DNA from: Eledone cirrhosa
Taxonomy: Eukaryota
Assembly: GCA_964016885.1 (NCBI GenBank)
Contig: OZ024761.1
Coordinates: 5,332,001-5,396,000 of the forward strand
Direction: 5' to 3'
DNA length: 64,000 nucleotides
Every line of letters begins with the position of its first letter. The stretch's first letter is position 1. Under the pieces are notes generated by a model. The model was not told where the DNA came from, made no database searches, and saw only the letters and a program-made list of their open reading frames with translations. Made by a program: the position numbers and the translations under genes. Shown piece by piece: positions 9,066 to 63,891 of the stretch.

Positions 9066-9774
9066 CTGAAACCAGATAAAATACTATCAGATCAAACACA
9101 CAGACACACACAGTCACACACAAACAGACACACACACACAGTCACACACATACAGACACATACACACAGACACATACACACAGACAGAGACAGACACAGA
9201 AGTGGCAAATAACTTGCTGTACTTAAAATGAAACATCAGTTAGTATCAGGGCGGGCATCCAGTCATTGAATGCTGCCTCAACATTTCTCATCCAGCCCAT
9301 ACCAACATAGGAAAGTAGACATAAAATGATGATGATGATGGTGGTGGTGGTGGTGATGGCGGTGATGGTGGTGGTGATGGTGGTGGTGGTGGTGGTGGGG
9401 TGGTGATAGTGGGGGGGGGGTGATAATGGTAGTGGTGATGGTGGTGGTGGTGGTGGTGGTAGTGGTGGTAGTGATGGTGATAATGGTGGTGGTGGTGATA
9501 ATGGTGGTGGTAGTGGTGATAGTGGTGGTAGTGATGGTGGTGATAGTGGGGGTGGTGAAGGTGGTGGTGGTGGTGGTGATGATGATGATGTTGATGGTGA
9601 TAATGGTGGTGATGTTGATGGTGGTAATGGTGGTGGTAGTGATGGTGGTAATGATAATGGTGGTGGTGATGATGATGATGATGATGTTGTTGTTGGTAGT
9701 GAATGTGGTGATGGTGGTAATGATGATACTATATTAAGGGCTCTATTTAAAAAAAGTGGTAAAAATGTACATAC

Positions 9775-9904
9775 TTTAACAAGTTGTGTGAGAGTGAGGG
9801 GGTAGTTCTCAGAGATGACAGCCAGTAACAGACTACGATGGAGTTCTTTCAGAGTTGACCCAAGTACCAGAGAGAATGGTGTGAAGGCGATTCGAACTTG
9901 ATCG
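9775..9904 (-). CDS. HEATR6: HEATR6 exon 10
   Basis: cttcag|(S)DQVRIAFTPFSLVLGSTLKELHRSLLLAVISENYPLTLTQLVK|gtatgt; AFTPFS and ELHR.LLLA motifs. Confidence 0.93.
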
Positions 9905-10069
9905 CTGAAGAATGGATACAAAGGGAGGGAAGAATTTTAGAAACATAAACCTGACATAATGTGGAATGTGAGAATGTCAGAATAAGAGATTACTATAAAG
10001 AACATCAAGACGGTATGATATATTGGTAAAACTCAACAGACATAATGTTACCATCGCATCCAGTCTACC

Positions 10070-10620
10070 GTGTAAAGTGGTAGCACTGGTGCCATAGTAC
10101 ATGGTATAAAGTGGTAGTGTTGGTGCCATAGTACATGGTATAAAGTGGTAGTGTTGGTGCCATAGTACATGGTGTAAAGTGGTAGTGTTGGTGCCATAGT
10201 ACATGGTATAAAGTGGTAGTGTTGGTGCCATAGTACATGGTGTAAAGTGGTAGTGTTGGTGCCATAGTACATGGTATAAAGTGGTAGTACTGGTGCCATA
10301 GTACATGGTGTAAAGTGGTGGTACATGGTGTAAAGTGGTGGTACATGGTGTAAAGTGGTGGTACATGGTGTAAAGTGGTAGTACATGGTGTAAAGTGGTA
10401 GTACATGGTGTAAAGTGGTGGTACATGGTGTAAAGTGGTAGTACATGGTGTAAAGTGGTGGTACATGGTGTAAAGTGGTAGTACATGGTGTAAAGTGGTG
10501 GTACATGGTGTAAAGTGGTGGTACATGGTGTACAGTGGTGGTACATGGTGTAAAGTGGTAGTACATGGTGTAAAGTGGTAGTACTGGTGCCACAAAGGTA
10601 ACTCCTAGTACATGGTATAA
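10070..10620. repeat. Composite 34/20-bp minisatellite
   Basis: gtacatggtgtaaagtggta units. Confidence 0.9.
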
Positions 10621-10774
10621 AGTTATTGGCATTAGGAAGGACATCCAGATGAAGAAATGGAGTGAATAAACAAGATGTTGTCACCTGTCTAGCCTAATAA
10701 TGTGTCAACTTGCCCAACCCATGCTAGCATGGAAAACAGAGATTAAACTGTGATATATATATATATATATATAT

Positions 10775-10908
10775 TTATTAAAATAACAGATTAAAGTTTA
10801 AGCAAAGAATCGCTGCTTTCACCCTTAATGGGATCTTCTGAAACTAAAAGAATCAAAGGGTGAAAGCAGCGATTCTTTGCTTAAACTTTAATCTGTTATT
10901 TTAATAAT
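10775..10908. repeat. Inverted repeat of about 52 bp (foldback)
   Basis: ttattaaaataacagattaaag...ctttcaccctt and its reverse complement with a spacer of about 30 bp, next to (TA)n. Confidence 0.85.
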
Positions 10909-11514
10909 ATTTGCTCTACGGTTCTTATATACTTGATGTATATTTATCCTGACCGGGTGATGTGTTGTTTCCTTGAGCAAGACACTTTATTTCACATTGC
11001 TCCAGTTTACTCAGCTGTAGAAATGAGATGATAAGGACTGGGGTCCCTATCATTCCACTGCAAAGTGGTTGTGGAGGTGCCACGGCAAAAAAGCACCCAG
11101 CACTCACTGTAAATGAGGTTGGTGTTAGGAAGGGCATCCAGCTGTAGAAATCAAGCCAGAGTCAGTTCCCGTATGAGCAATACAAGGTCAGCCGACCGGA
11201 CACTGCCCACAACAGGACAACCCGTCTAACCCATGCTAGCTTGGAAGAACGGACATAAAACAGTGATGATGATATATAGGAAAATGTTGAAGACCCCGAC
11301 GAAACGGCTTGAGCTCTGCCGTCGGGGTCTTGAACATTTTACTATTACCCACTCTACTACCCTAAATACTGAGTACTCTGGTGTATTATGGTCCATCTGG
11401 TTCCTTACCACACTTCCTTCATTATATATATATATATTTATATATACACAAAGTGTTAAAACGATCAAATTTTAGTTTATAACATTTATTTGCTGACAAT
11501 TGTTTCTTCCAGAG

Positions 11515-13747
11515 CAGGGGTCGCCAAACTACGGCCCGCAGGCCGGATCAGGCCTGCGACGTCAGTTCATCAGGCCCACCGATGGTACTTACATTTGCGT
11601 GATAAAACGGATGGAACACGAGATGTTTCTAATTCAATGTCTTTTTCATTTTCAGATCCCGTTTTCTTCACCCTTTATTATGGTTACTAAGAAAAGAAAA
11701 GTGGACACCGAGTGTCGCGTTTTCAATGAAGAATGGGGAGTAAAGTACTTCTTTGTGGAAACAAAGGACCAGAAAGCTAGTTGTGTGGTATGCAGCAAAA
11801 GTGTTGCCGTTTTGAAAGAGCACAATCTTCGGCGTCACTATGAAACAAAACATCTATCAACATATTCAAAGTTTTCTGGAAAGTTACGCTCTGAGAAATA
11901 TGAGTCCATGAAATGTGGTTTAGAAACTCAAAGAAATCTCTTCACAAGAAAGTTTGCTGAAAATGAATCTGTCACTCGTACAAGTTACAAAATAGTGCAT
12001 AAGTTGGCAGAGCGAGGAAAACCGTTTACTGATGGCAACTTCATCAAAGAGTGTATAATGGAAGCAGCAAATGACTTGTGTCCTGAGAAAGCCGATTTGT
12101 TTGGAAGTATCAGCCTTTCGGCAAGTTCAGTTGTGCGGAGAACAGAAGAACTTGGAGAGAACATAGTGCTACAGATACGCGAGAAAGCTAGGAACTTGTT
12201 GTGGTATTCTCTGGCGCTGGATGAGTCTACTGATCTCTCGAGTATGTCACAACTTCTCGTGTTCATTTGTGGTGTCAATTTGGACTTTCAGATAACGGAA
12301 GAGTTGGCATCCGTTTGCTGCATGCATGGAACAACAACTGGAAAAGACATTTTCATGGAAGTGCAGAAAACTTTGCAAGACTATAACCTTCAGTGGAATC
12401 AGCTTCGAGGTGTTACAGTTGATGGAGGAAAAAACATGGCTGGAGTGAGGAAGGGTCTGGTCGGGCAGATCAGGACTCAGTTGGAAGATTTGCAAATTCC
12501 AGACGCTCTGTTCATACACTGCATCATACATCAGCAAGCACTCTGTGGGAAAGACTTGGATATTTCTTGTGTACTGAAACCAGTCGTTTCTGCTGTGAAC
12601 TTTATTCGGGGACATGCACTCAATCACCGTCAGTTCCAGGCTTTTCTTGAAGAAATTGATTCTGATTTCTGTGACTTGCCCTATCACACAGCAGTGAGGT
12701 GGCTCAGCTGCGGTAAAGTCCTGTTTCGTTTTTACAAGCTCCGAAACGAAATGGATGTTTTTCTCACTGAAAAAGATAGAGCTGATCCACAGCTGTCAGA
12801 TCCTACCTGGCTGTCAAAGTTGTCATTTTTGGTCGACATCACATCCCACATGAATGAACTGAACTTGAAATTTCAGGGAAAGGATAACCTCGTCTGTGAT
12901 CTCTACAGAATCATCAAAGGATTTCGGCGGAGAAAGCTGTCATTGTTTGAAGCACAACTGGAAGGAGAAAACTTCTCTCATTTTCACTGTTTCAAAGAGT
13001 TTTGCGCTACAATTGCTGAAGATGTCAACCTCGATTTTCCGAGACTTGAAGAAGCATTTTTTGGAGAGATTTTCAGTGACATTCTTCTGTTCCAGAATCC
13101 GTTTGATTGTAACCTTGATGATGTGCCAGTTGAACTACAGTTGGAGCTCATTGATTTGCAAGCAAATGACTTGTTGAAAGAGAAGCACAGAGAAGGAAAA
13201 CTTGTTGAATTTTACCGCTTCTTACCTGATGTTGAGTTTCCAAAATTGAAAAAATTTGCCGCTGTTTGGAACAACTTATGTCTGTGAGCAAACATTTTAA
13301 AAAATGAAGTATGTGAAGTCAACACATCGAACGAGATTGACTGATGAACATTTGAAAGCAATTCACTTGATTGGATGCAGCAATTCCAAACCAAACATTG
13401 ATGATATCTTGAAAGCCAAACGTCAGTTTCACAAATCTCACTAACCTTTTTTGCTGCTTAGTTTGTAAGATTCGGATATGTGCACACTAGGTCTGATGTA
13501 ACTATATTTTTGCTAACCTCGCCTTCTTTGATAACTTTTTAGTAAATAAATATGTTGGTTGTCTTTGTTTTTTGTGCATTACACGCCACTCACCCATGAT
13601 TAACATGGAATGCTAAACGTAGTGTTTCATCTTTTTTCCCAGAGCTTTCGTTCTGGCTTGCAAGTATTGAACAGAATGATTATGCGGCCCGCGTTCGTCA
13701 TTCTTTCAGTTATTCGGCCTACTGTGAAAAAAGTTTGGTGACCCCTG
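11515..13747 (+). mobile_element. hAT DNA transposon (Buster/SPIN/Charlie type)
   Basis: TIRs CAGGGGTCGCCAAACT and AGTTTGGTGACCCCTG (15/16 match); 8-bp TSD TTCCAGAG at 11507-11514 and 13748-13755. Confidence 0.95.
11680..13443 (+). pseudogene. hAT transposase (GTF2IRD2/SPIN-like), frameshifted
   Basis: BED finger CVVC...RHYETKH, LALDESTD, VDGGKNM, HCIIHQ and VRWLS. The C-terminus (FGTTYVCEQTF*KMKYVK...RLTDEHL) is in another frame and has a premature TAA. Confidence 0.9.
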
Positions 13748-14225
13748 TTCCAGAGGGAAGTCTGGAATCATCGGAGCATAAGGTATGTCGAAACATGTAA
13801 CTAAAATCCTAGTCATTTAGAATATTTAGGCTACATAATTGTTATTAGTGTCAAAGGTATTATGTGGAGAGTCAGGAGTTATAAAGATGTTCTGGTTGAA
13901 AGAACACAATTACAGGCAGCACTGGTTGGAAGTGTAGGAGGTATAAGTAAAAAGCACAAGCAAAAAATCACAAGCTAAAAAACACAGGCAAAAAAGTTAT
14001 AAGCAAGGAAAATTGGTGTACAATGCAGGAGTCAATACAGTCAATAAGGCTTTTTACATATACCGCTTACACTTCCAACCAGTGCTGCCTGTAATTGTGT
14101 TCTTTCAAGCAGAACATCTTTATAACTCCTGACTCTCCACATGATGCCTTTGACACTAATAACAATTATGTACCCTAAATGTTCTAAATGACTAGGATTT
14201 TAGTTACATATTTCGACATTCCTTA

Positions 14226-14272
14226 TGCTCCGATGAATCCAGACTTCCCTCTGGAAGAAACAATTGTCAGCA
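14226..14272 (+). ncRNA. Minimal type I hammerhead ribozyme motif (CCGAUGA variant)
   Basis: tgct-CCGATGA-a[tccaga cttccc tctgga]a-GAAA-C AATT G-TC-agca: stem I, stem II, palindromic stem III and GUC cleavage triplet. Confidence 0.7.
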
Positions 14273-14811
14273 AATAAATGTTCTAAACTAAAATTTGATC
14301 GTTTTAACACTTTGTATCTCGGCTCTGTAAAACACTTGAAAATCTGCATTGAGCCTTTTGTCATACCGGTAACCGGCTAGTACTTAGTACTACCCTACAT
14401 ATTTATAGTTATATCAAACATATATAAATATTCTTATTACTATATATATATATATATATATATATAGCCTTAATAATACTGTTCTTAATTTCTGTGGTCA
14501 GGCTTCTTATGTTTAAGTTGCTTGAGGTTGTATATATCCCTAGGGAACGATATTTTATTGACCTGTCGGTGATATGTAGAAGATATTCTATATATATATA
14601 TATCCCATACAGTCATATTGAGAGTGAGTAAAAGTTGAGTGTATGTGTATATCCCATACTGTCAATGTAGTCGGCGTTAGGAAGGGCATCCAGCTGTAGA
14701 AAACCAGCCAGAAACATCCTTATATGAGTGAGACACGGTCACCCGACACAACTTGCCTCTAAATGGGATACTAAGAGTGAGAAATGAAATTTCGTTTTCA
14801 TTTTTTTTCAA

Positions 14812-14850
<39 letters not shown>

Positions 14851-14931
14851 CACCTCTCAAGAAGTCACAGCTGCTACCTGTGTATGGCATGCTTTCTTTT
14901 ACTTAAGCAATCAACATATGAAATAATTTAC

Positions 14932-15008
14932 CTGTACTCAGCTGCTGCCAGAAATGGTCTTGTCCCCTCAATGAGGGCAGATAGTGCACCAAGAGCACCT
15001 AGTCGACA
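14932..15008 (-). CDS. HEATR6: HEATR6 exon 9
   Basis: ttaccag|CRLGALGALSALIEGTRPFLAAAEY(S)|gtaaat; 77 bp, ends in phase 2. Confidence 0.9.
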
Positions 15009-15151
15009 CTGGTAAGAAAAGAAAAAAAAGGGTTTAAATGTCACCATAGCAACAATAAATTAATTTGTTTTTATGAACCAACAGGTAATAAATTAGTAGA
15101 GTCATTAAGGTGGCAGATTAAAAATGCTTCAGTATTTGTTCCAGCTCGCTG

Positions 15152-18193: not shown

Positions 18194-19041
18194 ATTATGG
18201 TGAGGATGATATGGTTACCTTTGGTGATGGGTCACGTAAGATTATGGTGAGGATGATATGGTTACCTTTGGTGATGGGTCACGTAAGATTATGGTGAGGA
18301 TGATATGGTTACCTTTGGTGATGGGTCACGTAAGATTATGGTGAGGATGATATGGTTACCTTTGGTGATGGGTCACGTAAGATTATGGTGAGGATGATAT
18401 GGTTACCTTTGGTGATGGGTCACGTAAGATTATGGTGAGGATGATATGGTTACCTTTGGTGATGGGTCACGTAAGATTATGGTGAGGATGATATGGTTAC
18501 CTTTGGTGATGGGTCACGTAAGATTATGGTGAGGATGATATGGTTACCTTTGGTGATGGGTCACGTAAGATTATGGTGAGGATGATATGGTTACCTTTGG
18601 TGATGGGTCACGTAAGATTATGGTGAGGATGATATGGTTACCTTTGGTGATGGGTCACGTAAGATTATGGTGAGGATGATATGGTTACCTTTGGTGATGG
18701 GTCACGTAAGATTATGGTGAGGATGATATGGTTACCTTTGGTGATGGGGTCACGTAAGATTATGGTGAGGATGATATGGTTACCTTTGGTGATGGGTCAC
18801 GTAAGATTATGGTGAGGATGATATGGTTACCTTTGGTGATGGGTCACGTAAGATTATGGTGAGGATGATATGGTTACCTTTGGTGATGGGTCACGTAAGA
18901 TTATGGTGAGGATGATATGGTTACCTTTGGTGATGGGTCACGTAAGATTATGGTGAGGATGATATGGTTACCTTTGGTGATGGGTCACGTAAGATTATGG
19001 TGAGGATGATATGGTTACCTTTGGTGATGGGTCACGTAAGA
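18194..19041. repeat. 47-bp minisatellite spanning the HEATR6 exon 8 donor
   Basis: (attatggtgaggatgatatggttacctttggtgatgggtcacgtaag) about 18 copies. Confidence 0.95.
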
Positions 19042-19141
19042 CTATGGCCAAGATGGAGCGGACATGTTGAGGATTTCCAGCAATGTGAATATCAGGAACA
19101 AAACACATCCAGTAACCAAATATGACTTTACGATCTGTAAA
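19019..19141 (-). CDS. HEATR6: HEATR6 exon 8 (DUF4042 region)
   Basis: tatcag|FTDRKVIFGYWMCFVPDIHIAGNPQHVRSILAIVLRDPSPK|gtaacc; GYW..F.PD and DPSPK motifs. Confidence 0.93.
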
Positions 19142-19149
19142 CTGATAGA

Positions 19150-19822
<673 letters not shown>

Positions 19823-20888
19823 GATAACTCTTTAGGTTAACCTTTTCACTACTGAAATATTTAAATTAACAAATCTGTTTCAGATATTTTCTATTAAATC
19901 ATTTCAGTATGTTAAGAATTAATCCTTTAGCATTTACATTACTCTATATATACTATTGTATTTTCACAGTAAAGGCTTTACCTCACATAATATCTCACAT
20001 AACATTTACATTACTCTATATATACTATTGTATTTTCACAGTAAAGGCTTTACCTCACATAACATTTACATTACTCTATATATACTATTGTATTTTCACA
20101 GTAAAGGCTTTACCTCACATAACATTTACATTACTCTATATATACTATTGTATTTTCACAGTAAAGGCTTTACCTCACATAACATTTACATTACTCTATA
20201 TATACTATTGTATTTTCATGGTAAAGGCTTTACCTCACATAGCATTTACATTACTCTATATATACTATTGTATTTTCACAGTAAAGGCTTTACCTCACAT
20301 AATATCTCACATAACATTTACATTACTCTATATATACTATTGTATTTTCACAGTAAAGGCTTTACCTCACATAATATCTCGCATAACATTTACATTACTC
20401 TATATATACTATTGTATTTTCACAGTAAAGACTTTACCTCACATACTATCTCACATAACATTTACATTACTCTATATATACTATTGTATTTTCACGGTAA
20501 AGACTTTACCTCACATACTATCTCACATAACATTTACATTACTCTATATATACTATTGTATTTTCACGGTAAAGGCTTTACCTCACATAATATCTCACAT
20601 AACATTTACATTACTCTATATATACTATTGTATTTTCACGGTAAAGGCTTTACCTCACATAATATCTCACATAACATCTCGTATACGAGAGACGTGTGTT
20701 GACGTGTGTGAACAAGCTCGGCTACCGAGTCGGATTTACTTACTCAAAAAGTGAGTTTTGATTAATTTTTTTATACTGTAATATACGTTAACCCCTTGCC
20801 TTGGTCGTCAAACTTTGAGTTTATTTATTTTCGCCCCTTTTTGGGGCGAATTTTCCAGTTAAAAATTTATTACGGCAAACTAATAGAA

Positions 20889-22625
20889 ATGGACGGAATT
20901 TTCACATCTCATCCTAACGTGAAAGCCACGCCCCCTAAGAAAGGTGATACAGAGAAGCTAGAAGCACAAGGCTCTAAGTCTTCCCTCCTCACTTCTGCAA
21001 AAGAAACATGGAACACGGAATTAAAAGAAAAATTTGTAGAAATGGGTGAAAACCCAGAAAGTCACATAAACGCAGACAAAAACATCAACGACAATAACAG
21101 CAATAGTCACAACACCAACCAAGGAAAAAATAACGATAACACCAAACAAAGTGAACCCACTACTGGTACCTCCTTTGCACAGGCGGTCCGGAAAACACAA
21201 ACCTGCAAGCAACTGGACATTACAACTCTGAGAGAAAAGATGAAGGAAGCGAAACAGTATGTAACTTTCAAAGAAGGAGGAGACTTCACAATCACCTCCC
21301 CACAAGAAATCAAAAGAGACACGACGCTAAGAACGATATCTTTCAGAACAATTTCCAACATAACAAGGAAACCAACTCAATTATCCCAAAAAGAGATTGA
21401 GCTGGTCCTAAAAAATGTGTGGAGTGATATATCGTTCATACAAAAAGGGCCACTCTATGGGAATATAACGGTCCTAATGAAGGATCAATTGACGGCCAGG
21501 AAATACTCTGTGGCACCAATTGTTTCCAAGATATATACATTTTTCCCCACATATTTAGGGAAAAGAACGCAGAAGATAAGGGTCTCCGGAATCCGGCCAA
21601 ATGCATGCATTTCCTGGGTACTAACAGGATTTTTAGAAGACGAGGACGGAATCCTCTCAGTAGGAGAAGTCACCACAGACGTTTTCGGCGGTTTGAGCGT
21701 GGAGGTTCTGGTCCAAATGAGACCAGAACGAATCGCTAGAATACCACAGAGGGTGTCCCTCGATGGAGAAACATTTATATATATTTCAGCCGAGGGTAGG
21801 AGGCCCATATGTTACTACTGTTCAAGCAGGGGTCATCTAAGGGCTGCTTGTCCTCAATTGACAAAAAAAAAGGCTCTTTTGCCTACACCCCACACACCAC
21901 CACCGCCACCACCACCACCACCTCCACCACCACCACCACAACAACAACAAAAACAACAGGGAAAAATAACACAAGACACGGCCCCACCCAAAACAACTAC
22001 CAAAACACACACAAATACAACAAAACCCCAAAATACACCACTACCCGACAGCACGGACGAGGACCCAGCGGAAACGGCACCTAGTGACGAAGAGGGGGAA
22101 CCCTTCCAACCTGTAAAAAGGAAAAAAAGAAAGCACCACTCGAACATAAACGAAACAAACACACAACCACCAACAAAAACAAAACAAACAGAACAAACAA
22201 AATCCGCCCCACCCCAAAACATAACACATACAACAAAACGTAAGCACACACAAGAACAACAAACAAACACAACACAAATAAAACAGTATACATACATTAA
22301 CACAAATAACAAAGAACTAGTAAAAACAATACACAAAGACCCTTTGGTGGAAACTGAAGGGCAATTCTTTGCAAGCGCGGCCAACAAACCGCATTTAAAA
22401 ATGATAAGACTCCCAATGGACACCTATGCAAAACTAAGAGAGAACTTTCCTGAGGACGTGGGGAAAACATGTACTCGACCCTATAACCGCGTCCTCTTGA
22501 AACGTTTCCCCACCCACACCTCACCAAACACCCCCACTCCACCACAGAACAACACCCCACCAAACAACCCCTCCAATACGCCCATGGATATTGTGCAACC
22601 TGCTCCTCAGGAGCCGAACAGGTAG
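20889..22625 (+). CDS. LINE ORF1 (gag-like, CCHC zinc knuckle)
   Basis: First ATG at 20889; CYYCSSRGHLRAAC knuckle; Pro/Thr/Gln-rich C-terminal half with KRKKRK. Confidence 0.88.
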   Translation: MDGIFTSHPNVKATPPKKGDTEKLEAQGSKSSLLTSAKETWNTELKEKFVEMGENPESHINADKNINDNNSNSHNTNQGKNNDNTKQSEPTTGTSFAQAVRKTQTCKQLDITTLREKMKEAKQYVTFKEGGDFTITSPQEIKRDTTLRTISFRTISNITRKPTQLSQKEIELVLKNVWSDISFIQKGPLYGNITVLMKDQLTARKYSVAPIVSKIYTFFPTYLGKRTQKIRVSGIRPNACISWVLTGFLEDEDGILSVGEVTTDVFGGLSVEVLVQMRPERIARIPQRVSLDGETFIYISAEGRRPICYYCSSRGHLRAACPQLTKKKALLPTPHTPPPPPPPPPPPPPPQQQQKQQGKITQDTAPPKTTTKTHTNTTKPQNTPLPDSTDEDPAETAPSDEEGEPFQPVKRKKRKHHSNINETNTQPPTKTKQTEQTKSAPPQNITHTTKRKHTQEQQTNTTQIKQYTYINTNNKELVKTIHKDPLVETEGQFFASAANKPHLKMIRLPMDTYAKLRENFPEDVGKTCTRPYNRVLLKRFPTHTSPNTPTPPQNNTPPNNPSNTPMDIVQPAPQEPNR

Positions 22626-22646
22626 GTCCTTCCTCTTTTAACCAAC

Positions 22647-25600
22647 ATGGCTGATATAAGAGTTGGGTTTCTGAATGTACGTGGCCTGGGACTGTCTTGG
22701 AAACAAGGCAAACTTTTAAACGATCTCAGGTCACATAGAATGGATGTAATGGCTATTTGCGAGTCCAGGATCAGCAGCGAGCACCAACTGGCGCCCCTCT
22801 TCGACGACTTTGAGATCTTCGCATCTCTCTGTCAACCGGGGGGTGGGGGTGGAGTTGTCGTTCTGCTGCGAAAACACCTGGGCCTCGCCATACAGAAGGT
22901 GCACCTGGACCCGGAGGGTCGACTGGTGGTTTTAGACGTCGGCAGTAGTGAAAGTGGAGCCCTTAGACTAATAGCTGTGTACGCCCCTTTTTGGGCAGCG
23001 CGGCCGGAATACTTCCAACGTCTGGAAACTTTTCTGGGAACGTCCCGCTCCTTGCTTTTAGTGGGGGACTGGAATGGTATCCTGGATGCACGTTGGGACT
23101 ATGTAGGGGCATGTGCCAATAGAGGGGGGTGTAAAAGCCTCAAAAGGTTAATCGGCCGATTTGACCTGGCCGATAGATATCGACTAGATTTTCCGACTGT
23201 ACCACTATGGACGTGGACCAATCGCAGTGGAACATCTAGGTCATACCTAGATAGGGTCCTAGTTAGAGAGAACGATAGGGACACATTTAGCTGTCCAAAA
23301 ATGTTCATGGTTGACTATTCGGATCACAAGTTAGTGACCTGCATAGCCAACCTTGATAGAACCCATAGACAGGGACCCGGTTACTGGAAGCTGAACTTGT
23401 CCTTACCGAGAAGCAAAGCTTACAGTAAACGGATTAGCACGTTAGTTAAGCAGAATTTGACAGGGGCAATTGTCAACAACAGGTGGTGGAGCTCTCTTAA
23501 GAGAGCAATTAGAATAGAATCGATAGGTTTTAGTCAGGAATTAGCAAGGGATAGGAACAAGACGGAAAGGGAATTAGTAGATAGAGTAGAAGAGGCGATT
23601 AGGAGTGGCAATGTAGCCGGCGTGCTGGCATCAAGAATGGCCTTAGACCAGTTCTTTGAGGTGAAGCATGAAGGCTGCGTTGTCAGGAGTAAAATACGTG
23701 CTCTGGGTAATGAGGGAGCCAAAGCTGTAAGCTGGGCCCGAGTGACAGAGGCAAAAAGTGGGAACAAGTCCACGATTCGGTCTTTGAAGGACCAGGATGG
23801 GCGTGTGATCCTTGAACCTGGGCAGATGTGTGCGGCCTTTCAGCGGCACTTTGCACGACTGTTCGAGAGGGGCGGCGCGCCGGGTGAGACTATGGATTTC
23901 AATCCATACCTCGACGGTCTGCCGCGCCTCTCGGACGCGGAGGCGAAGTCCTGCGAAAGGACGATTTCAGCTGCTGAGATAGGGGCGGCGCTGAGCCAAT
24001 GCGGCAAACGCAAATCCCCGGGTCTCGATGGTCTACCATACGAGCTATATGTAGCGATGCCGGACTTGTTCTCCGATATCCTCGAAGCGGTCTACTGCAA
24101 CTGGCAGCAGAACGGGAGAATTCCCAGTTCTGTGACCAAGGGCGTAGTTACGCTGGTGAGGAAGGATGAGAACAAGGGGGATGACATAAGTAACTTTAGG
24201 CCCATAACTCTGCTAAATACAGAGTTAAAGATTTTGGCCAAGGTGTTAGCGAAGAGGTTGGCGCTTGTCGTTGGAAACCTGGTGGGAGAAGCGCAGACAT
24301 GCGCAATCCCGTCCAGGTCCATTCACGACAATCTCCACCTTATGCGATACATCATAGAGAGGGTAGGGAATGAACCCGGCTTTGGTGGGGCCCTGATCAA
24401 CTTGGATCAATCTAAAGCTTTCGATAGGGTTGACCATCGTTACCTGGATGCGGTGCTCGCGGCGGCAGGCTTCGGACCCGTTTTCAGGGGTTGGATTGCT
24501 GCGATGCACAGCAGCAACGTCTGCTCAAGGGTCAAGGTGAACGGCCACCTCTCGGAGCCGTTCCAAATCATGCGATCCATCCGACAGGGATGCCCTCTCT
24601 CCTCCCTACTGTATGTGCTGGCTCTTGAGCCACTACTGCGGAAGTTGGAGCGGTTGCAGGGCATCCCTTTGGAACCGGGATTGCAGAAAGCGGCGTCGGC
24701 CTACGCCGATGACGTGACAGTAATGGTGTCGAAAACCTCGCAAATCGGTGAGATCGGCACCTTACTGGAGGAATATGAAAGGTTTACAGGAGCCAAGCTG
24801 AACCGGGACAAGTCCGTCGGTTTGCAACTCGGAACATGGAGAGGCAAACCGATGCCCTCCAACGACGTCGTCGGACGCTGGACGGAGGGCCCGGTGAAGC
24901 TGCTTGGGGTCTGGTTCGGACCAGACCTCCAGGTGGAGAAAAACTGGAACGAGGTAACGGCCAGGGTGTTTGCACTCACCCAGAAGTGGGCCCAGTGCAA
25001 ACTATCCCTGAAAGGTCGAGCGGAGGTGGCGAATACTTATATAGCATCCGTCATCTACTACCGCTTGACCGTCGTGCCTTGCCCAGTGAAAAGACTCGCC
25101 AAAATGGAGTGCGCGCTGTTCCAATTTCTTTGGAACAAGCGGACCCCTTTGGTGAGGAGATCCATCTGCTGTCAACACCCTTCGAAAGGAGGGCTGGGGA
25201 TGCCGTGGCTACAGATGCGTAAACACGCATTAAGGCTACGGCACCTCCAGGTATTCCTCACCGGTCAACCGGTGTGGGCCCCGTTTGTGAGGCGAGCCTT
25301 TCCCAGACTCGTCTCGCTCACCGAGCTGCAATCCTGGGTCAAGCAAAGACCGAGAAAAGTGGGCGACTGGCACATTGAATGTGCCCAGGCGCTCACGGCC
25401 CTCTGGAAAGCGGATCCGGCAATCAGTGGAGACTCCACCTCGACATTCTATAGAGGGTTGGTACGCAGCAGGTGCGACGATGCTCTCGGAGAAGCTCTAG
25501 GCATGGAGGAAGATGAACTGGCCAGTCTGTTCGGTAGGACGTTTGGCCCTGGACCGATGGACAACTTCCAAAAGTCCCTGGCTTGGCAGTGCTACCGAGG

Positions 25601-26084
25601 GGCTCTACCCGTTCGAGACAAGCTCCACAGACATGGGAGCCTGGGTAGAGATCCTTTGAATAAGATCTGTCCGAGATGCGTGCATGATGACGAAACCGTT
25701 GCGCACGCATTCGTACACTGCCCAGGCATTGCTGACCTGTGGGGCTATGTGGAACGACTACTGTCGAGGGTGGGACCAATCCGGTTGACCACCGAGTCCA
25801 TTGTCACGATCAAACCGCCTCCCCCTTTCAAAAACGAAGGAGAGGCGGTTTTTCTCTGTGTGGTAGCCATGGCTAAAGAAGTTGTATGGTGGACGAGGCT
25901 GAAAGGGCTGAGGTCAGACACCTTTCTCTCCGGCCAACAACTGGTCCCCTTTTTCAAATACCATTTTAAAAGAAGGATCAGAATGGAGAGAGAGGTGCTC
26001 TACCCCAGCAAGTTTTATGAAAGGTGGGTGAAAGTAGGGAGAATGGCCAGAGTGAATGGGTCTTCTCTCTATATCAGCCTGTAG
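22647..26084 (+). CDS. LINE ORF2 (APE endonuclease, reverse transcriptase, C-terminal zinc motif)
   Basis: LNVRGL, GDWNG, SYLDR and SDH (APE); KSPGLDG, FRPITLLN, DQSKAFDRV, IRQGCPLS and YADD (RT); CPRC...ETVAHAFVHC; 1145 aa with no stops. Confidence 0.96.
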   Translation: MADIRVGFLNVRGLGLSWKQGKLLNDLRSHRMDVMAICESRISSEHQLAPLFDDFEIFASLCQPGGGGGVVVLLRKHLGLAIQKVHLDPEGRLVVLDVGSSESGALRLIAVYAPFWAARPEYFQRLETFLGTSRSLLLVGDWNGILDARWDYVGACANRGGCKSLKRLIGRFDLADRYRLDFPTVPLWTWTNRSGTSRSYLDRVLVRENDRDTFSCPKMFMVDYSDHKLVTCIANLDRTHRQGPGYWKLNLSLPRSKAYSKRISTLVKQNLTGAIVNNRWWSSLKRAIRIESIGFSQELARDRNKTERELVDRVEEAIRSGNVAGVLASRMALDQFFEVKHEGCVVRSKIRALGNEGAKAVSWARVTEAKSGNKSTIRSLKDQDGRVILEPGQMCAAFQRHFARLFERGGAPGETMDFNPYLDGLPRLSDAEAKSCERTISAAEIGAALSQCGKRKSPGLDGLPYELYVAMPDLFSDILEAVYCNWQQNGRIPSSVTKGVVTLVRKDENKGDDISNFRPITLLNTELKILAKVLAKRLALVVGNLVGEAQTCAIPSRSIHDNLHLMRYIIERVGNEPGFGGALINLDQSKAFDRVDHRYLDAVLAAAGFGPVFRGWIAAMHSSNVCSRVKVNGHLSEPFQIMRSIRQGCPLSSLLYVLALEPLLRKLERLQGIPLEPGLQKAASAYADDVTVMVSKTSQIGEIGTLLEEYERFTGAKLNRDKSVGLQLGTWRGKPMPSNDVVGRWTEGPVKLLGVWFGPDLQVEKNWNEVTARVFALTQKWAQCKLSLKGRAEVANTYIASVIYYRLTVVPCPVKRLAKMECALFQFLWNKRTPLVRRSICCQHPSKGGLGMPWLQMRKHALRLRHLQVFLTGQPVWAPFVRRAFPRLVSLTELQSWVKQRPRKVGDWHIECAQALTALWKADPAISGDSTSTFYRGLVRSRCDDALGEALGMEEDELASLFGRTFGPGPMDNFQKSLAWQCYRGALPVRDKLHRHGSLGRDPLNKICPRCVHDDETVAHAFVHCPGIADLWGYVERLLSRVGPIRLTTESIVTIKPPPPFKNEGEAVFLCVVAMAKEVVWWTRLKGLRSDTFLSGQQLVPFFKYHFKRRIRMEREVLYPSKFYERWVKVGRMARVNGSSLYISL

Positions 26085-47444: not shown

Positions 47445-47770
47445 CATTTTACGTCCGCTTTTCCCTGCTTGCAAGGGTGGGACGGGAACTGATTCTGGCT
47501 TGATTTCTACAGCTGGATGCCCTTCCTAACACCAACCTCATTTACAGTGAGTGCTGGGTGCTTTTTTGTTGTGGCACCTCCACGACCACTTTGCAGTGGA
47601 ATGATAGGGACTGGGGTCCCTATCATCTCATTTCTACAGCTGAGTAAACTGGAGCAATGTGAAATAAAGTGTCTTGCTCAAGGAAACAACACATCACCCG
47701 GTCTGAGAATTGAACTCACAACCTTTTGATTGCAAGCCCAATGCTCTAACCACTAAGCCATGTGCCTCCA
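47445..47770 (-). mobile_element. Same SINE family, inverted relative to 46667-47017
   Basis: Near-identical reverse complement of the previous copy. Confidence 0.85.
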
Positions 47771-59201: not shown

Positions 59202-60580
59202 ACATTACAAATATAATTGTTTCTACTTTTAGGCACAAGGCCAGCAATTACCCAGTGTATTACTTACAAATATAATGTTGATAAACACATAAGAAACACA
59301 ACCAACCATTGTTAGGAACCTAACGAAAACAACACCTAAAATATATGACCAGAGTGAGAGAAATAAGAAAATGGGGGGAACATATCACCAGGGTCAACGG
59401 AATATTGAGGCAATACGCTAGAGTATAGCAGAAAAATAGGGCTTTTTTATGTTTTGAGCTGAAAGGGAAGATCGATATAAACTTTCCTCCGTGTGGAATG
59501 AAACCGGGAAAGGTCACGTTTAATGATAAATGAAGCGAAAGTAATCTGGAATTTTGTATAGGGTTCTTCCTGGAATGACCTTAAACTACTTCCCTGGCCC
59601 TGTTAAGGAACTATTTCTAGTTGACGTGTGTTATATTATATTATCATTACTGTTATTGTTACAGACCTGTCAACACCCATCCACTCTGGGGTGGGTGAGA
59701 GATGTCTTCTCTTGTGAAAATGGCTATAGCTTTCATTATGTAAATTCTCGAGGTTGACTTTGGCCTTTCATCCTTACGGGGTCGATAAAATAAAGTACCA
59801 GTAATGCACTGGGTAATTGCTGGCCTTGTGCCTAAAGTAGAAACAATTATGTAAATTCTCCTCATTTTGCCTCATTTCTTGCCGTTTTGGGGCACTTTTT
59901 TTCATGGTACTCCCCGTCTAGGTTTTTAGAGGTTGGCAGGCCTGTTATATCTACTACTTTTCTGTTTGGTGATGTCCCCTTTCTTTTATTTGCGTTAAAC
60001 CTCACTCCGTGTTTTGTTATATTATTCCCAATGTCTTCGGCCCTTGTAACCAATAAAAGTAATTATTGTTAGGGCGATGGATTGGCAGAGCTCCTGCTCT
60101 TTACAGTATTTGCTTCTGTTCTTTGCATGCCGAGTTCAAATCTCGCAGACGCCAGCTTTGCTTTCATCCTTACGGAGTCGATATAATAAAGTACCAGTAA
60201 TACACTGGAATCGATTTACTCACTGTTGGCCGTGTGCCTAAATCAGAAACAATTTTTAAAGGGCGGTGGATTAGCAGAATCGGTAGAGCGTCAGACAACA
60301 TGCTTTGTGATATATAGTTACGGTCCTTTACATTTTGATTAAAATCCCGCCGAGGTGACCCATACCCTTCATCCTTACAGGGTCGATAAAATAAAGTACC
60401 AGTAACACACTGGGGTCGATTTAATGGCCTACCCCGCTTCACCTTCAAATAGTTGGCCTTATGCCAAATGTTGAAACAGTTGTAGTTATGTTCTGGAACT
60501 TCTATACTATTTCTCTTCTAATTTTTATTTCTCAATTTATTTTCAGTTCACTGTCTCCCCATAAATCCTGACCCCTAATT

Positions 60581-60961
60581 ATGTCGGTGGTGACCTTGCA
60601 GCTGGGTCAGTGTGGTAATCAAATAGGGGGTGAGTTCTACACCAGCCTTCTACAGGATCTTCACATAACCAATACACACGTCTCACCAAAGGCCAATGAG
60701 GACTACGTCCAGGAAGCCACTGAACGTTTCTTTGTTGAGAAGAAGTCTAAGAATGGACTGGGTGGTCTTTTAGAAGCTCGGGCCGTGATGGTTGACATGG
60801 AGCCGAAAGTGATTATCCAGACTTGTGAAATGGCCCAGAGGTCAGGTTTGTGGAGATACCCGGTCAACCAACAGTTCTGTCACCAAAGGGGATCAGGTAA
60901 CAACTGGGCCAATGGCTTCCTCTCATATGGACCAAAGTCTAAGGAATCTGTAATGAATATG
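60581..60961 (+). CDS. TUBD1: Delta-tubulin, first coding exon
   Basis: MSVVTLQLGQCGNQIG...ARAVMVDMEPKVI...GSGNNWANG, the delta-tubulin signature; acceptor tttcag at 60546 implies an upstream UTR exon; donor atg|gttagt. Confidence 0.95.
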
Positions 60962-63418
60962 GTTAGTTTCTTCTCTCTCTCACCTCTCTCTCTCTCTCAC
61001 CCTTCTCTCACTCCTCTTTCTCACACTTCCTCTCTCTCTCACTTCCTCTCTCTTACTAACATCCTTCTCTCTTGCATTTCCTCTCTCTCTCCTCTCTTTC
61101 TCTCACCTCTCTCTCTCACATCCTTGTCTTTCACCCCTCCCCTCTCTAACCTCCCTCTCCCTCACCCTCTGCCCTCTCTCTCACACCCTCTCACTCCTCT
61201 GTCTCTCGCCCCCTCCCCTCTCTAACCTCCCTATCCCTCACCCCATCCCCTCTCACTCCCTCTTTCTCACTCTCACTCTATCTCACACCCTCTCTCTCCA
61301 TGCCAGCATTTTATAAATATTCGTTAAGACTATGGTCTTATCCTTTGTCCATTTGTTACAGCCCCTTGTGGACTAGAGCCAGTTAGTATTGACCTTAAAG
61401 TACTGAAACAATGAATCTTTAGCTGTCAGCTGTTGAGATGTATTCATTCATTTTCCGGTCTGCACCCTGATTTTTTTTATTCATATATATATATCATCAT
61501 CATCATCATCATCGTTTAACAACTATCTTCCACACTAGCATGGGTTAGACGGGAATTGTCCCACTTGAGGCAAGATTGGTTGGGTGACCGTGTCTCGCTC
61601 GTATAGGACTATCTGGCAGGTTTTCTACGGCTGGATGCCCTTCCTAACACCAACCACATTTACAGTGTGGACTGGGAGCTTTTTACTGTGTCTCATACAC
61701 GGCCACATTACAGCGTGGACTGTGTGTTTTTTTGTCGTGACACCTACACGACCTCATTAGTTTGGACAATGTTGTGGTACCAACTTTACAGAGAAAGGGG
61801 GGTGTTAGTGGGAGTGGGAGGATGGAGTAGGGGTAGTGGGTTGGGGTGTATGTCTGTTTTGGAGGGGCCTATATATATTATATATATATATATATTATGT
61901 AATATATATATATTATATATATATATGTGTGTGTGTTTGTGTGAAGATTTGCATCCAAAGTATCTATTATAAATGCTTTTAAAATAAACAGATTTTGAAC
62001 CAGGAATGATTTCAGGGCCTTTGGTACCATGGTTAGTGAAAGAGAAAGATAGTGGTCAGGACCCTTTTTCAGAACCTCTGAAACTTGTGGGAGAAAGGTA
62101 TCCTCAAATTACAGGCCTGGTTAGATTACTTCCAACAAAGTGAACTCCTGTAAACAACTTTGTATAACCAGAACTGGTTTCAGGTGGTTTTCTATCAAAC
62201 ATGTTCACCATTCATCTTGCTTATTTCTTCATCTATATATTACTATAAAACTCCGTGATTGCTTGCTTACTTGCTTGTCTGTAATGTAATATAGCCAAAG
62301 GGGCGCATAATGGGAAAATACTTTGAAAGGAAGTTGACCCTGAAATGGGAATCCAAATGGAATAAAACAAGTTTTGCGTAAATTGAAGCATGCGTTCCCG
62401 AGATACGGGGTTTTTCTGGGTACCTTCATAAACAGAGAGAGAGAGAGAAGGATAGAGAGAAAGAGATAGTGGTTGTGAGAGAGTAGATTGAGAGACATAG
62501 AAAAAGGGAGAGGAGACAGAGAAGGAGAATATAAGAGAGAGAGAGCTGGTGGTGTTGTATATATAAGTGTGTATGTGTCTATGACCAGTGTGTATAGATC
62601 ACAGACACCCACACATATACATATATATATATGTATACACACACACACATATATACATACACACACGTATATATATATGGGCCTTCCAGTTTCCTTTCAC
62701 ATTATATACATGTCTGTGTATATTTTAATTATTTAATAATTATTTTTAAGTGAACATGATTTTTAAAAAAATCTTTTGAAGAGAACGAGACCTAACGGGT
62801 CACGGGTGGCCTAGTTTATTTAAAACCCCTTTTGATATCAACCTGACCAAAGCTGGCTCTGGTTCTATGAAACAAATTCACCTGTTTTAAAGGGGGATCC
62901 CTATTTAAATATTCACGGTTTTCCACTGCTCCTGGCAACTGTTCCCTACTGAGGGTTATATCGCCTGAGAATATCCTGAATTGTGGAGAGTTTTTGTTGA
63001 GAATGTTCGACTGCTCACAATGATGATTTGAATATAAAATTTTCCAGCATAATTTTGTCTAAAAACCATATATTAATTTACTACTTTAGTAAAGAAATAA
63101 ATTGTCTTAGTAAATCCCTCAAAATCCTTCATTAATTGAAATAGAGGGTGGTGGATTGGCAGTATCGGTAGAGGGTCGGACGCCATGCTTTCCAGCATAG
63201 TTACGTCCCTTTACGATCTGTGTTCAAATCCCGCCGAGGTTGACTTTGCTTTCATCCTTACGGGGTCGATAAAATAAAGTACCAGTAATGCACTGGTTAA
63301 TTGCTGGCCTTGTGCCTAAAGAAGAAACAATTAATTGAAGTAGAGTATATTTCATTAGAAATATAGTCATGGATTAGTTAAAAATAAAACTTTCTTTTTC
63401 TTTTAAAATCTTCTATAG

Positions 63419-63818
63419 ATCCAGAAAGAAGCTGAAAGATGTGATTATCTTGGAGGTTTCATGTGCCTAATGAGTGTTGCTGGTGGTACAGGTTCTGGTG
63501 TAGGGGCTTACCTCACTCGCTGTCTTCGTGATGCCTACCCTAATGCCTTCATCCTCAATCAAGTGATCTGGCCCTATCATACCGGTGAAGTGATTGTCCA
63601 GAATTACAATGCTCTATTGACCCTGTCCAACCTCTATCCAACATCCGATGCCATCCTGCTCATCACTAATGACCAGATGCAGGATATCTGCACCCGGCGA
63701 CTGCACATTAAACAAGTGACCTTTGAGAACATGAATTGTGTTATTGCTGACCAGTTGACCAGCCTGCTGCAGCCTTTATACAGAGCTAACACTGGCAACA
63801 GAGTTCACAATTGTCTTG
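63419..63818 (+). CDS. TUBD1: Delta-tubulin, second coding exon
   Basis: tatag|IQKEAERCDYLGGFMCLMSVAGGTGSGVG...GEVIVQNYNALLTL...|gtaagt; tubulin GGTGSG motif. Confidence 0.95.
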
Positions 63819-63891
63819 GTAAGTATTGACCGTATTACTCTAATTAGCCACCAACGAACCCAACCCTCTCTCCCCCCACACATTTTATTTC

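Follow-up and report, generated by a model that had tools for sequence, protein, structure and literature searches.

A decayed hAT transposon nested in a hammerhead-like motif of a likely Penelope-like foldback repeat in a HEATR6 intron of Eledone cirrhosa

In the present study, we analyzed 64,000 nucleotides of the Eledone cirrhosa genome (assembly GCA_964016885.1, contig OZ024761.1, positions 5,332,001 to 5,396,000 of the forward strand; hereafter, the window, numbered from its first letter), in which a hAT DNA transposon interrupts one arm of a foldback repeat inside an intron of HEATR6. Two unrelated insertions probably account for this arrangement: a truncated, likely Penelope-like element (PLE) inserted as an inverted pair, followed by a hAT that likely chose stem II of a hammerhead-like motif, predicted to be masked by then, by its likeness to the target consensus NTCTAGAN. 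The hAT in stem II is most likely an ordinary case of a mobile element nested inside another one.

Scripted excision of 11515-13747 together with one target site duplication (TSD) restored the foldback that had been proposed in the initial annotation: when 14049-14315 is reverse-complemented, the joined left arm (11448-11514 plus 13756-13955) agrees with it at 255 of 267 positions, without gaps. A failure of the arms to align across the junction, named beforehand as a result that would speak against the proposal, did not occur, and a repeat finder gave the same picture, with one inverted repeat of 208 nt and another of 67 nt. The TSD equals 14249-14256 of the right arm, i.e. the last loop base and the entire 3' strand of stem II, and the insertion placed the GAAA box and cleavage site 2.2 kb from CCGAUGA. 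Since HEATR6 is on the minus strand, the left copy of the motif is the host-sense copy; it was claimed to be the one whose stem II strand became the TSD, and this held, the strand being the 3' one and minus-strand exons lying collinearly on both sides of the unit (14934-15017, aa 485-512; 9760-9909, aa 512-561). These exons were located with the O. sinensis-named protein P0121 as the query, and the gene assignment is supported by a DUF4042 match and by one exon that matched Octopus sinensis at 74% and Argonauta hians at 59%, the best named relatives.

Regarding the order of events, uninterrupted copies of the repeat were sought in contigs of a related organism (run X1, which shares 0.51 of the window words, the highest share among 23 runs); the contigs of four runs, X1 and three others, were compared with the examined stretch. 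Six RNA runs share 0.14-0.16 of the words. X1 records 6-8 cross 14249-14256 without interruption. Among the joints and pieces listed for the four runs, a minor part of all rows, no joint skips the hAT and no piece crosses a junction specific to this locus, which carries no weight either way. Because the opposite arm and these family copies lack the interruption, the foldback is older than the hAT, in agreement with the order originally put forward. The divergences observed are 12 of 267 positions for the two arms and, for the hAT compared with four contigs of X1, 23 of 1860 letters; they are consistent with this order as a comparison of sequences rather than a formal dating.

The inserted element is, as judged from its sequence, a decayed Charlie/Buster-like hAT. 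The superfamily is indicated by the 8-bp TSD, by short terminal inverted repeats (TIRs) that start with CAG (16 bp, 15/16 matching), and by transposase homology: the product is 90% identical to P0001, a 595-aa hAT transposase carrying PF05699. The Spin-doc zinc finger in its open reading frame (ORF; PF18658 match) and the GTF2IRD2-like transposase are shared with Charlie/Buster-type hATs. This copy is missing 14, 19, and 14 letters at 13039, 13074, and 13262, respectively, relative to X1 and X13 contigs, and its C-terminal coding part is in another frame, such that the transposase is not intact. A similar family, hAT-HT2_AC (2246 bp, TIR CAGGGGTCCCCAAAC), has non-autonomous families with the TSDs NHCTAGRN, NTCTAGAN, and NTNTANAN (PMC3014272, Table 1). 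The present element resembles it in length (~2.25 kb), TIR (CAGGGGTC..CAAAC), and an 8-bp TSD near NTCTAGAN, a likeness of features, and differs in that it represents a decayed copy of a marine-invertebrate family with crustacean proteins as its nearest named matches.

Given an insertion in this repeat, the sequence itself most likely made stem II the likeliest landing place, with no special cause required. Because stem II reads TCCAGA/TCTGGA, each copy offers two near-NTCTAGAN sites; the 732-bp unit before the insertion has seven sites within one mismatch of it, all imperfect, and four of these are stem II strands; for the 2783-bp intron before the insertion, the figure is 4 of 19. The observed TSD, TTCCAGAG, matches NTCTAGAN at five of six specified bases. 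What weighs against this explanation is that it compares a single TSD with a preference taken from lizard relatives, not from this hAT family's own insertions. The position of the insertion, within a foldback arm and in a local stem, would also suit a foldback that extrudes a cruciform or hairpin attracting this hAT, with stem II as a recurrent hotspot. We regard this as extremely improbable since a single event was observed and the primary sequence suffices; moreover, none of the X1 joints and loose ends listed connects a hAT end to the arm family, which argues weakly in the same direction. A search of the literature found no report of a hAT inside a hammerhead.

The interrupted motif is a hammerhead-like variant. 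The right copy consists of stem I (UGCU/AGCA, 4 bp), CCGAUGA at 14230, a stem II of 6 bp (against 7 bp for its left counterpart), GAAA at 14257, the palindromic ACAAUUGU, and GUC with C17 at 14268; stem III has 2 bp, or 8 bp as a dimer. A GAAA box, an A15.1-U16.1 pair, an NUH cleavage triplet, and three stems round the core are as in type I hammerheads. Both arms carry CCGAUGA (U4C) instead of CUGANGA, which sets the motif apart from canonical members, and the G10.1-C11.1 pair is absent: stem II opens with U-A on the left and with an A.A mismatch followed by U-A on the right. The right arm was annotated as keeping both an uninterrupted target and an intact hammerhead fold; the former stands, and the latter must be qualified because the fold of lowest energy is not a hammerhead (z of -1.6 to -1.8 for two shorter stretches and -0.35 for a 116-nt stretch) and the Rfam hammerhead models gave no match at the gathering threshold or at E<=10. 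A relaxed descriptor, composed after the motif had been seen, matched this site alone in the 64-kb window, versus one match in 60 Markov-shuffled 64-kb windows.

U4C "considerably decreases activity in vitro", yet still allows viroid infectivity (PMC3088659); a monomer of a minimal hammerhead ribozyme (min-HHR) did not cleave (PMC4209133), and the hammerheads of metazoan PLEs are dimer-dependent and slow (PMC4209133; reviewed in PMC6765202). In our predictions, stem III of the monomer had a probability below 0.01, and in the minimum-energy cofold of two right copies the 8-bp palindrome paired intermolecularly. These models suggest that the motif was a weak, dimer-type variant already before the insertion. 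A point on the other side is the energy of the full double-hammerhead core, -25.4 kcal/mol, versus -31.0 for the cofold minimum and -26.6 for two monomers, with distal stem I excluded.

The consequences for the host also appear to be small. The insertion had been proposed to have disabled a self-cleaving intronic motif and to have broken a long double-stranded RNA (dsRNA) hairpin, neither of which was borne out. The antisense copy is made before the sense copy in the host transcript, and the seven bases of the host-sense core are predicted to pair with the antisense arm (P 0.96-1.0), with stem II at P ~0, both before and after the insertion; thus, a motif that was in any case a weak dimer-type variant was predicted to be masked beforehand. 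The hairpin was shortened rather than broken, from 255/267 to 197/208 paired positions (-428 to -347 kcal/mol). For the host, little would have changed: the sense motif is predicted to have been held in a duplex beforehand, and a 208-bp hairpin remains. The insertion probably disabled nothing that worked, and these models give no good sign of a host consequence. A caveat that counts against this interpretation is that folding is an equilibrium prediction, which ignores proteins, adenosine-to-inosine editing, and co-transcriptional splicing.

The opposite view, that an active intronic ribozyme and a long dsRNA were knocked out together, relieving a cost to HEATR6 expression, may draw on the facts that the interrupted copy is the host-sense one and that its core was physically split, as well as on the reported depletion of non-LTR retrozymes (LTR, long terminal repeat) from vertebrate introns (10.64898/2026.07.22.740005). 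We consider it very unlikely, in view of the predicted pairing of the sense core, the duplex that remains, the low activity reported for U4C and the lack of cleavage in a min-HHR monomer, and the choice between the sense and antisense arms, which is a coin toss. Selection to silence the ribozyme was rejected as the motif is predicted to have been masked already. In theory, since the TSD repeats the 3' strand, the ribozyme could re-form if stem II looped out the hAT; this was also rejected because the 5' half is predicted to stay paired to the antisense arm.

The foldback repeat clearly belongs to a dispersed, multi-copy family in the X1 genome. A total of 1711 X1 contigs were placed on the stretch, 350 of which fitted both arms, and many were divergent; the summed depth, which is not equal to copy number, was 4,802-51,981 in the seven bins that start at 13747, whereas the interior of the hAT had 171-374. 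The arm family was absent from the three other runs compared, in all of which the hAT was present. Twenty-eight X1 contigs pass into (TA)n at 14317, another reaches 14406, the last bin of the extension is deeply covered, and 35 X1 contigs overrun the ends of the examined stretch. In the unit, the 3' ends of both copies face outward and only the right copy continues past 14315; the two motifs are on opposite strands, ~460 bp apart, each with a palindromic stem III and ~45 nt from the common 3' end of the family.

This layout, which the initial annotation did not identify as one known from PLEs, suggests that the foldback is likely the remnant of a truncated PLE. In PLEs, min-HHRs with a 7-8-bp helix II and a 4-5-bp helix I have been described, with dual copies ~100-700 bp apart on opposite strands (PMC4209133), and PLE insertions may contain an inverted 5'-truncated copy with a one-sided 30-40-bp tail and a bias toward microsatellites (PMC8557442); the one-sided tail has been accounted for by two start sites of the reverse transcriptase (RT; PMC11167929). 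Hammerheads and Penelope elements are on record in the giant squid (PMC6962438), and the hammerhead alignment of Cervera and de la Pena (2014; PMC4209133) includes no cephalopod. The present motif resembles the minimal hammerheads of metazoan PLE pseudo-long terminal repeats (pLTRs; PMC4209133) in its type I topology, its stems (a long stem II of 6-7 bp, a stem I of just 4 bp, and a very small, palindromic stem III), its flanks, rich in U on the 5' side and in AU on the 3' side, and its opposite-strand pair within 100-700 bp, and differs from them in the CCGAUGA core, the missing G10.1-C11.1 pair, and the lack of a linked RT ORF. The inverted truncated copy forming a foldback, the extension at one end, and the (TA)n target are as in the PLE insertions of Craig et al. 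(2021; PMC8557442), among which Naiads are without canonical hammerheads and the extensions are shorter.

Two observations weigh against a PLE origin: no RT or GIY-YIG sequence was found in or beside the unit by a six-frame reading (Pfam was negative for 2/2 arm ORFs), and the extension is ~105 nt or more, versus the 30-40 nt described. With no RT or endonuclease remnant, the case for a PLE is made from the layout. An RT-less state would be expected of a truncated remnant, and we file the repeat as PLE-like, not as a proven PLE member; assignment to a clade (Neptune, Poseidon, Hydra, or Naiad) would take an ORF. The missing coding remnant, together with the short, multi-copy nature of the repeat and the proposed descent of animal retrozymes from pLTRs (10.64898/2026.07.22.740005), might instead indicate a non-autonomous hammerhead retroelement, retrozyme-like or similar to a short interspersed nuclear element (SINE) and derived from a PLE pLTR, in place of an autonomous PLE that was truncated; the nesting would be unchanged. 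This appears unlikely to us, since the copies are an inverted pair with unequal ends, with no further copy in the window, and do not form the head-to-tail tandem monomers of non-LTR retrozymes, and since a long stem II with a short stem I fits PLE min-HHRs, not the canonical 4-bp/6-bp type. A foldback similar to a miniature inverted-repeat transposable element was rejected because there is no TSD, the ends are unequal, and a ribozyme motif lies inside.

Taken together with the anatomy of the unit (Table 1), the following course of events may be proposed. A truncated, likely Penelope-like retroelement would have entered a (TA)n tract of the HEATR6 intron in the form of two inverted copies; the hAT then duplicated the 3' strand of stem II and separated GAAA and the cleavage site from CCGAUGA; and little would have changed for the host, with the sense motif predicted to be in a 267-bp duplex beforehand and a 208-bp hairpin left afterwards. 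Originally, the motif likely served the retroelement within its own RNA, as a dimer-type ribozyme of slow action that used the ACAAUUGU palindrome, and had no role in the intron. The 93-nt spacer between the copies likely corresponds to a longer 5' end of the left copy.

Table 1. Features of the nested unit and the surrounding intron (positions in the window)
Feature	Position	Strand	Basis or remark
HEATR6 intron enclosing the whole unit	9910..14933	-	approximate limits, tblastn exon matches
(TA)n tract, left end of unit	11423..11446	.	repeat listing; corresponds to 14317, where 28 X1 contigs pass into (TA)n
Left copy, 3' part: GAAA 11506-11503, palindromic stem III, C17 at 11495, stem I 3' strand, first TSD	11448..11514	-	
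TSD 1, TTCCAGAG, one mismatch to NTCTAGAN	11507..11514	+	
hAT DNA transposon, Charlie/Buster-like by sequence, 2233 bp; TIRs 11515-11530 and 13732-13747; transposase ~11680-13441, broken	11515..13747	+	
TSD 2, TTCCAGAG	13748..13755	+	
5' part of left copy, with the 5' strand of stem I, CCGAUGA 13774-13768, and a complete stem II, then hAT instead of GAAA	13748..13955	-	
93-nt spacer, repeat-family sequence, U-rich on minus	13956..14048	- (presumed)	deeply covered by run X1 contigs
Right copy, uninterrupted, antisense to HEATR6	14049..14315	+	arm alignment
Hammerhead-like motif of type I with a U4C core and a palindromic stem III of 2 bp; cleavage predicted after C14268	14226..14272	+	
One-sided 3' extension of repeat family, tail-like, right limit loose	14316..14420	+	X1 record 8 spans 14228-14406
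(TA)n tract, right end of unit	14441..14466	.	repeat listing

Several other repeats occur in or beside this unit. A 70-nt imperfect inverted repeat (80%) is located directly to its left (11276-11345), one 14-mer is present at 11355 and again, with a single mismatch, at 14388, and a perfect 52-nt inverted repeat with a 29-nt loop (10775-10907) lies beside a (TA)n tract in the same intron. The right-hand extension contains a small hairpin, CCGG-TAA-CCGG, followed by CTAG (14362-14380), which we presume to be similar to a Helitron-type 3' end. Elsewhere in HEATR6, an exon end (aa 476-492) is repeated ~14 times with a 47-nt period in a tandem array (18210-19153, minus strand) that could provide repeated splice donors, and another intron harbors an apparently intact non-LTR retrotransposon antisense to the gene (20766-26084, plus strand), with two ORFs, one of 619 aa and the other a 1152-aa frame with endonuclease, RT, and zf-RVT. 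A weak tRNA match (47703-47760, minus strand, 31.6 bits) is probably a tRNA-derived SINE head, and two ORFs like tubulin exons, which we take to be delta-like, are divergent from HEATR6 (60572-63829, plus strand).

The hAT itself was likely transferred horizontally, across phyla, between crustaceans and an octopod, as suggested by protein comparisons: its identity is 88-94% with the copies that bear the names Homarus, Oratosquilla, Eriocheir, and Trinorchestia, versus 54-71% with the three Octopus-named matches compared. The three organisms without the arm family carry it as well, one contig showing 27 other letters in ~2,030 aligned. No report of an octopus-crustacean hAT transfer was found in the literature.

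The CCGAUGA core may be a trait of the repeat family. U4C predates this hAT insertion because both arms have it. In the consensus of six X1 contigs at a loose end before 14252, TGCT-CCGATGA is kept with a different stem II and loop; when the consensus is read on into the window, CCAAA/TTTGG replaces CCAGA/TCTGG, a compensatory change from G-C to A-U. This consensus has an agreement of 0.7 and a median length of 20 letters, and at most about half of the six contigs reach position 4, 21 letters away. It stands for a sister subfamily of the repeat, with a palindromic CCTAGG loop. Among the X1 variants listed, a near-fixed difference was present at 14122 and none at 14231, which is weakly in line with a conserved core. 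These comparisons suggest, indirectly, that CCGAUGA is family-wide.

C at position 4 occurs in none of the 56 PLE-type motifs in Fig. S3 of PMC4209133; the search of Cervera and de la Pena probably fixed the base at this position. U4C is known from a viroid variant (PMC3088659), and C/U at the same position has been reported in deep-sea virome matches (PMC13481778). The core substitution is the same here; however, those natural cases are viroid or viral RNAs, whereas the present one is carried by the two arms of a retroelement-like repeat in an animal and is possibly family-wide. No CCGAUGA hammerhead in PLEs was found in the literature covered, to which the work of Lunse et al. on small PLE variants, which may describe U4C, did not belong. 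Motif scans of public collections gave 41 loci in metagenomes, none of which was homologous to the arm in blastn or had both a C[CT]GA core and at least 5 bp in stem II; one locus in prokaryotes, which lacks stem I and was taken as chance; and none in viruses. In a predicted misfold, C4 pairs with G16.2 (P 0.67, versus 0.01 with U4), by which U4C might act as an off-switch of the monomer.

The single nested insertion is of little import in itself; the empty site kept by the opposite arm makes it a clean teaching case, and it warns that hAT-preferred sites become twice as many where a stem is near-palindromic (TCCAGA/TCTGGA). Of more interest are the repeat family, which deserves further study, and the likely hAT transfer. 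It is conceivable, and for the present doubtful, that octopods carry an abundant Penelope-like family with a fixed CCGAUGA core that is under structural selection, as the compensatory change in stem II might reflect, and still cleaves as a dimer. If this is true, Rfam and searches based on CUGANGA would miss such motifs, and animal hammerheads would be undercounted; and if CCGAUGA is the consensus and cleaves, the family would provide U4C hammerheads in a large natural collection, on which to test how retroelements keep core variants functional.

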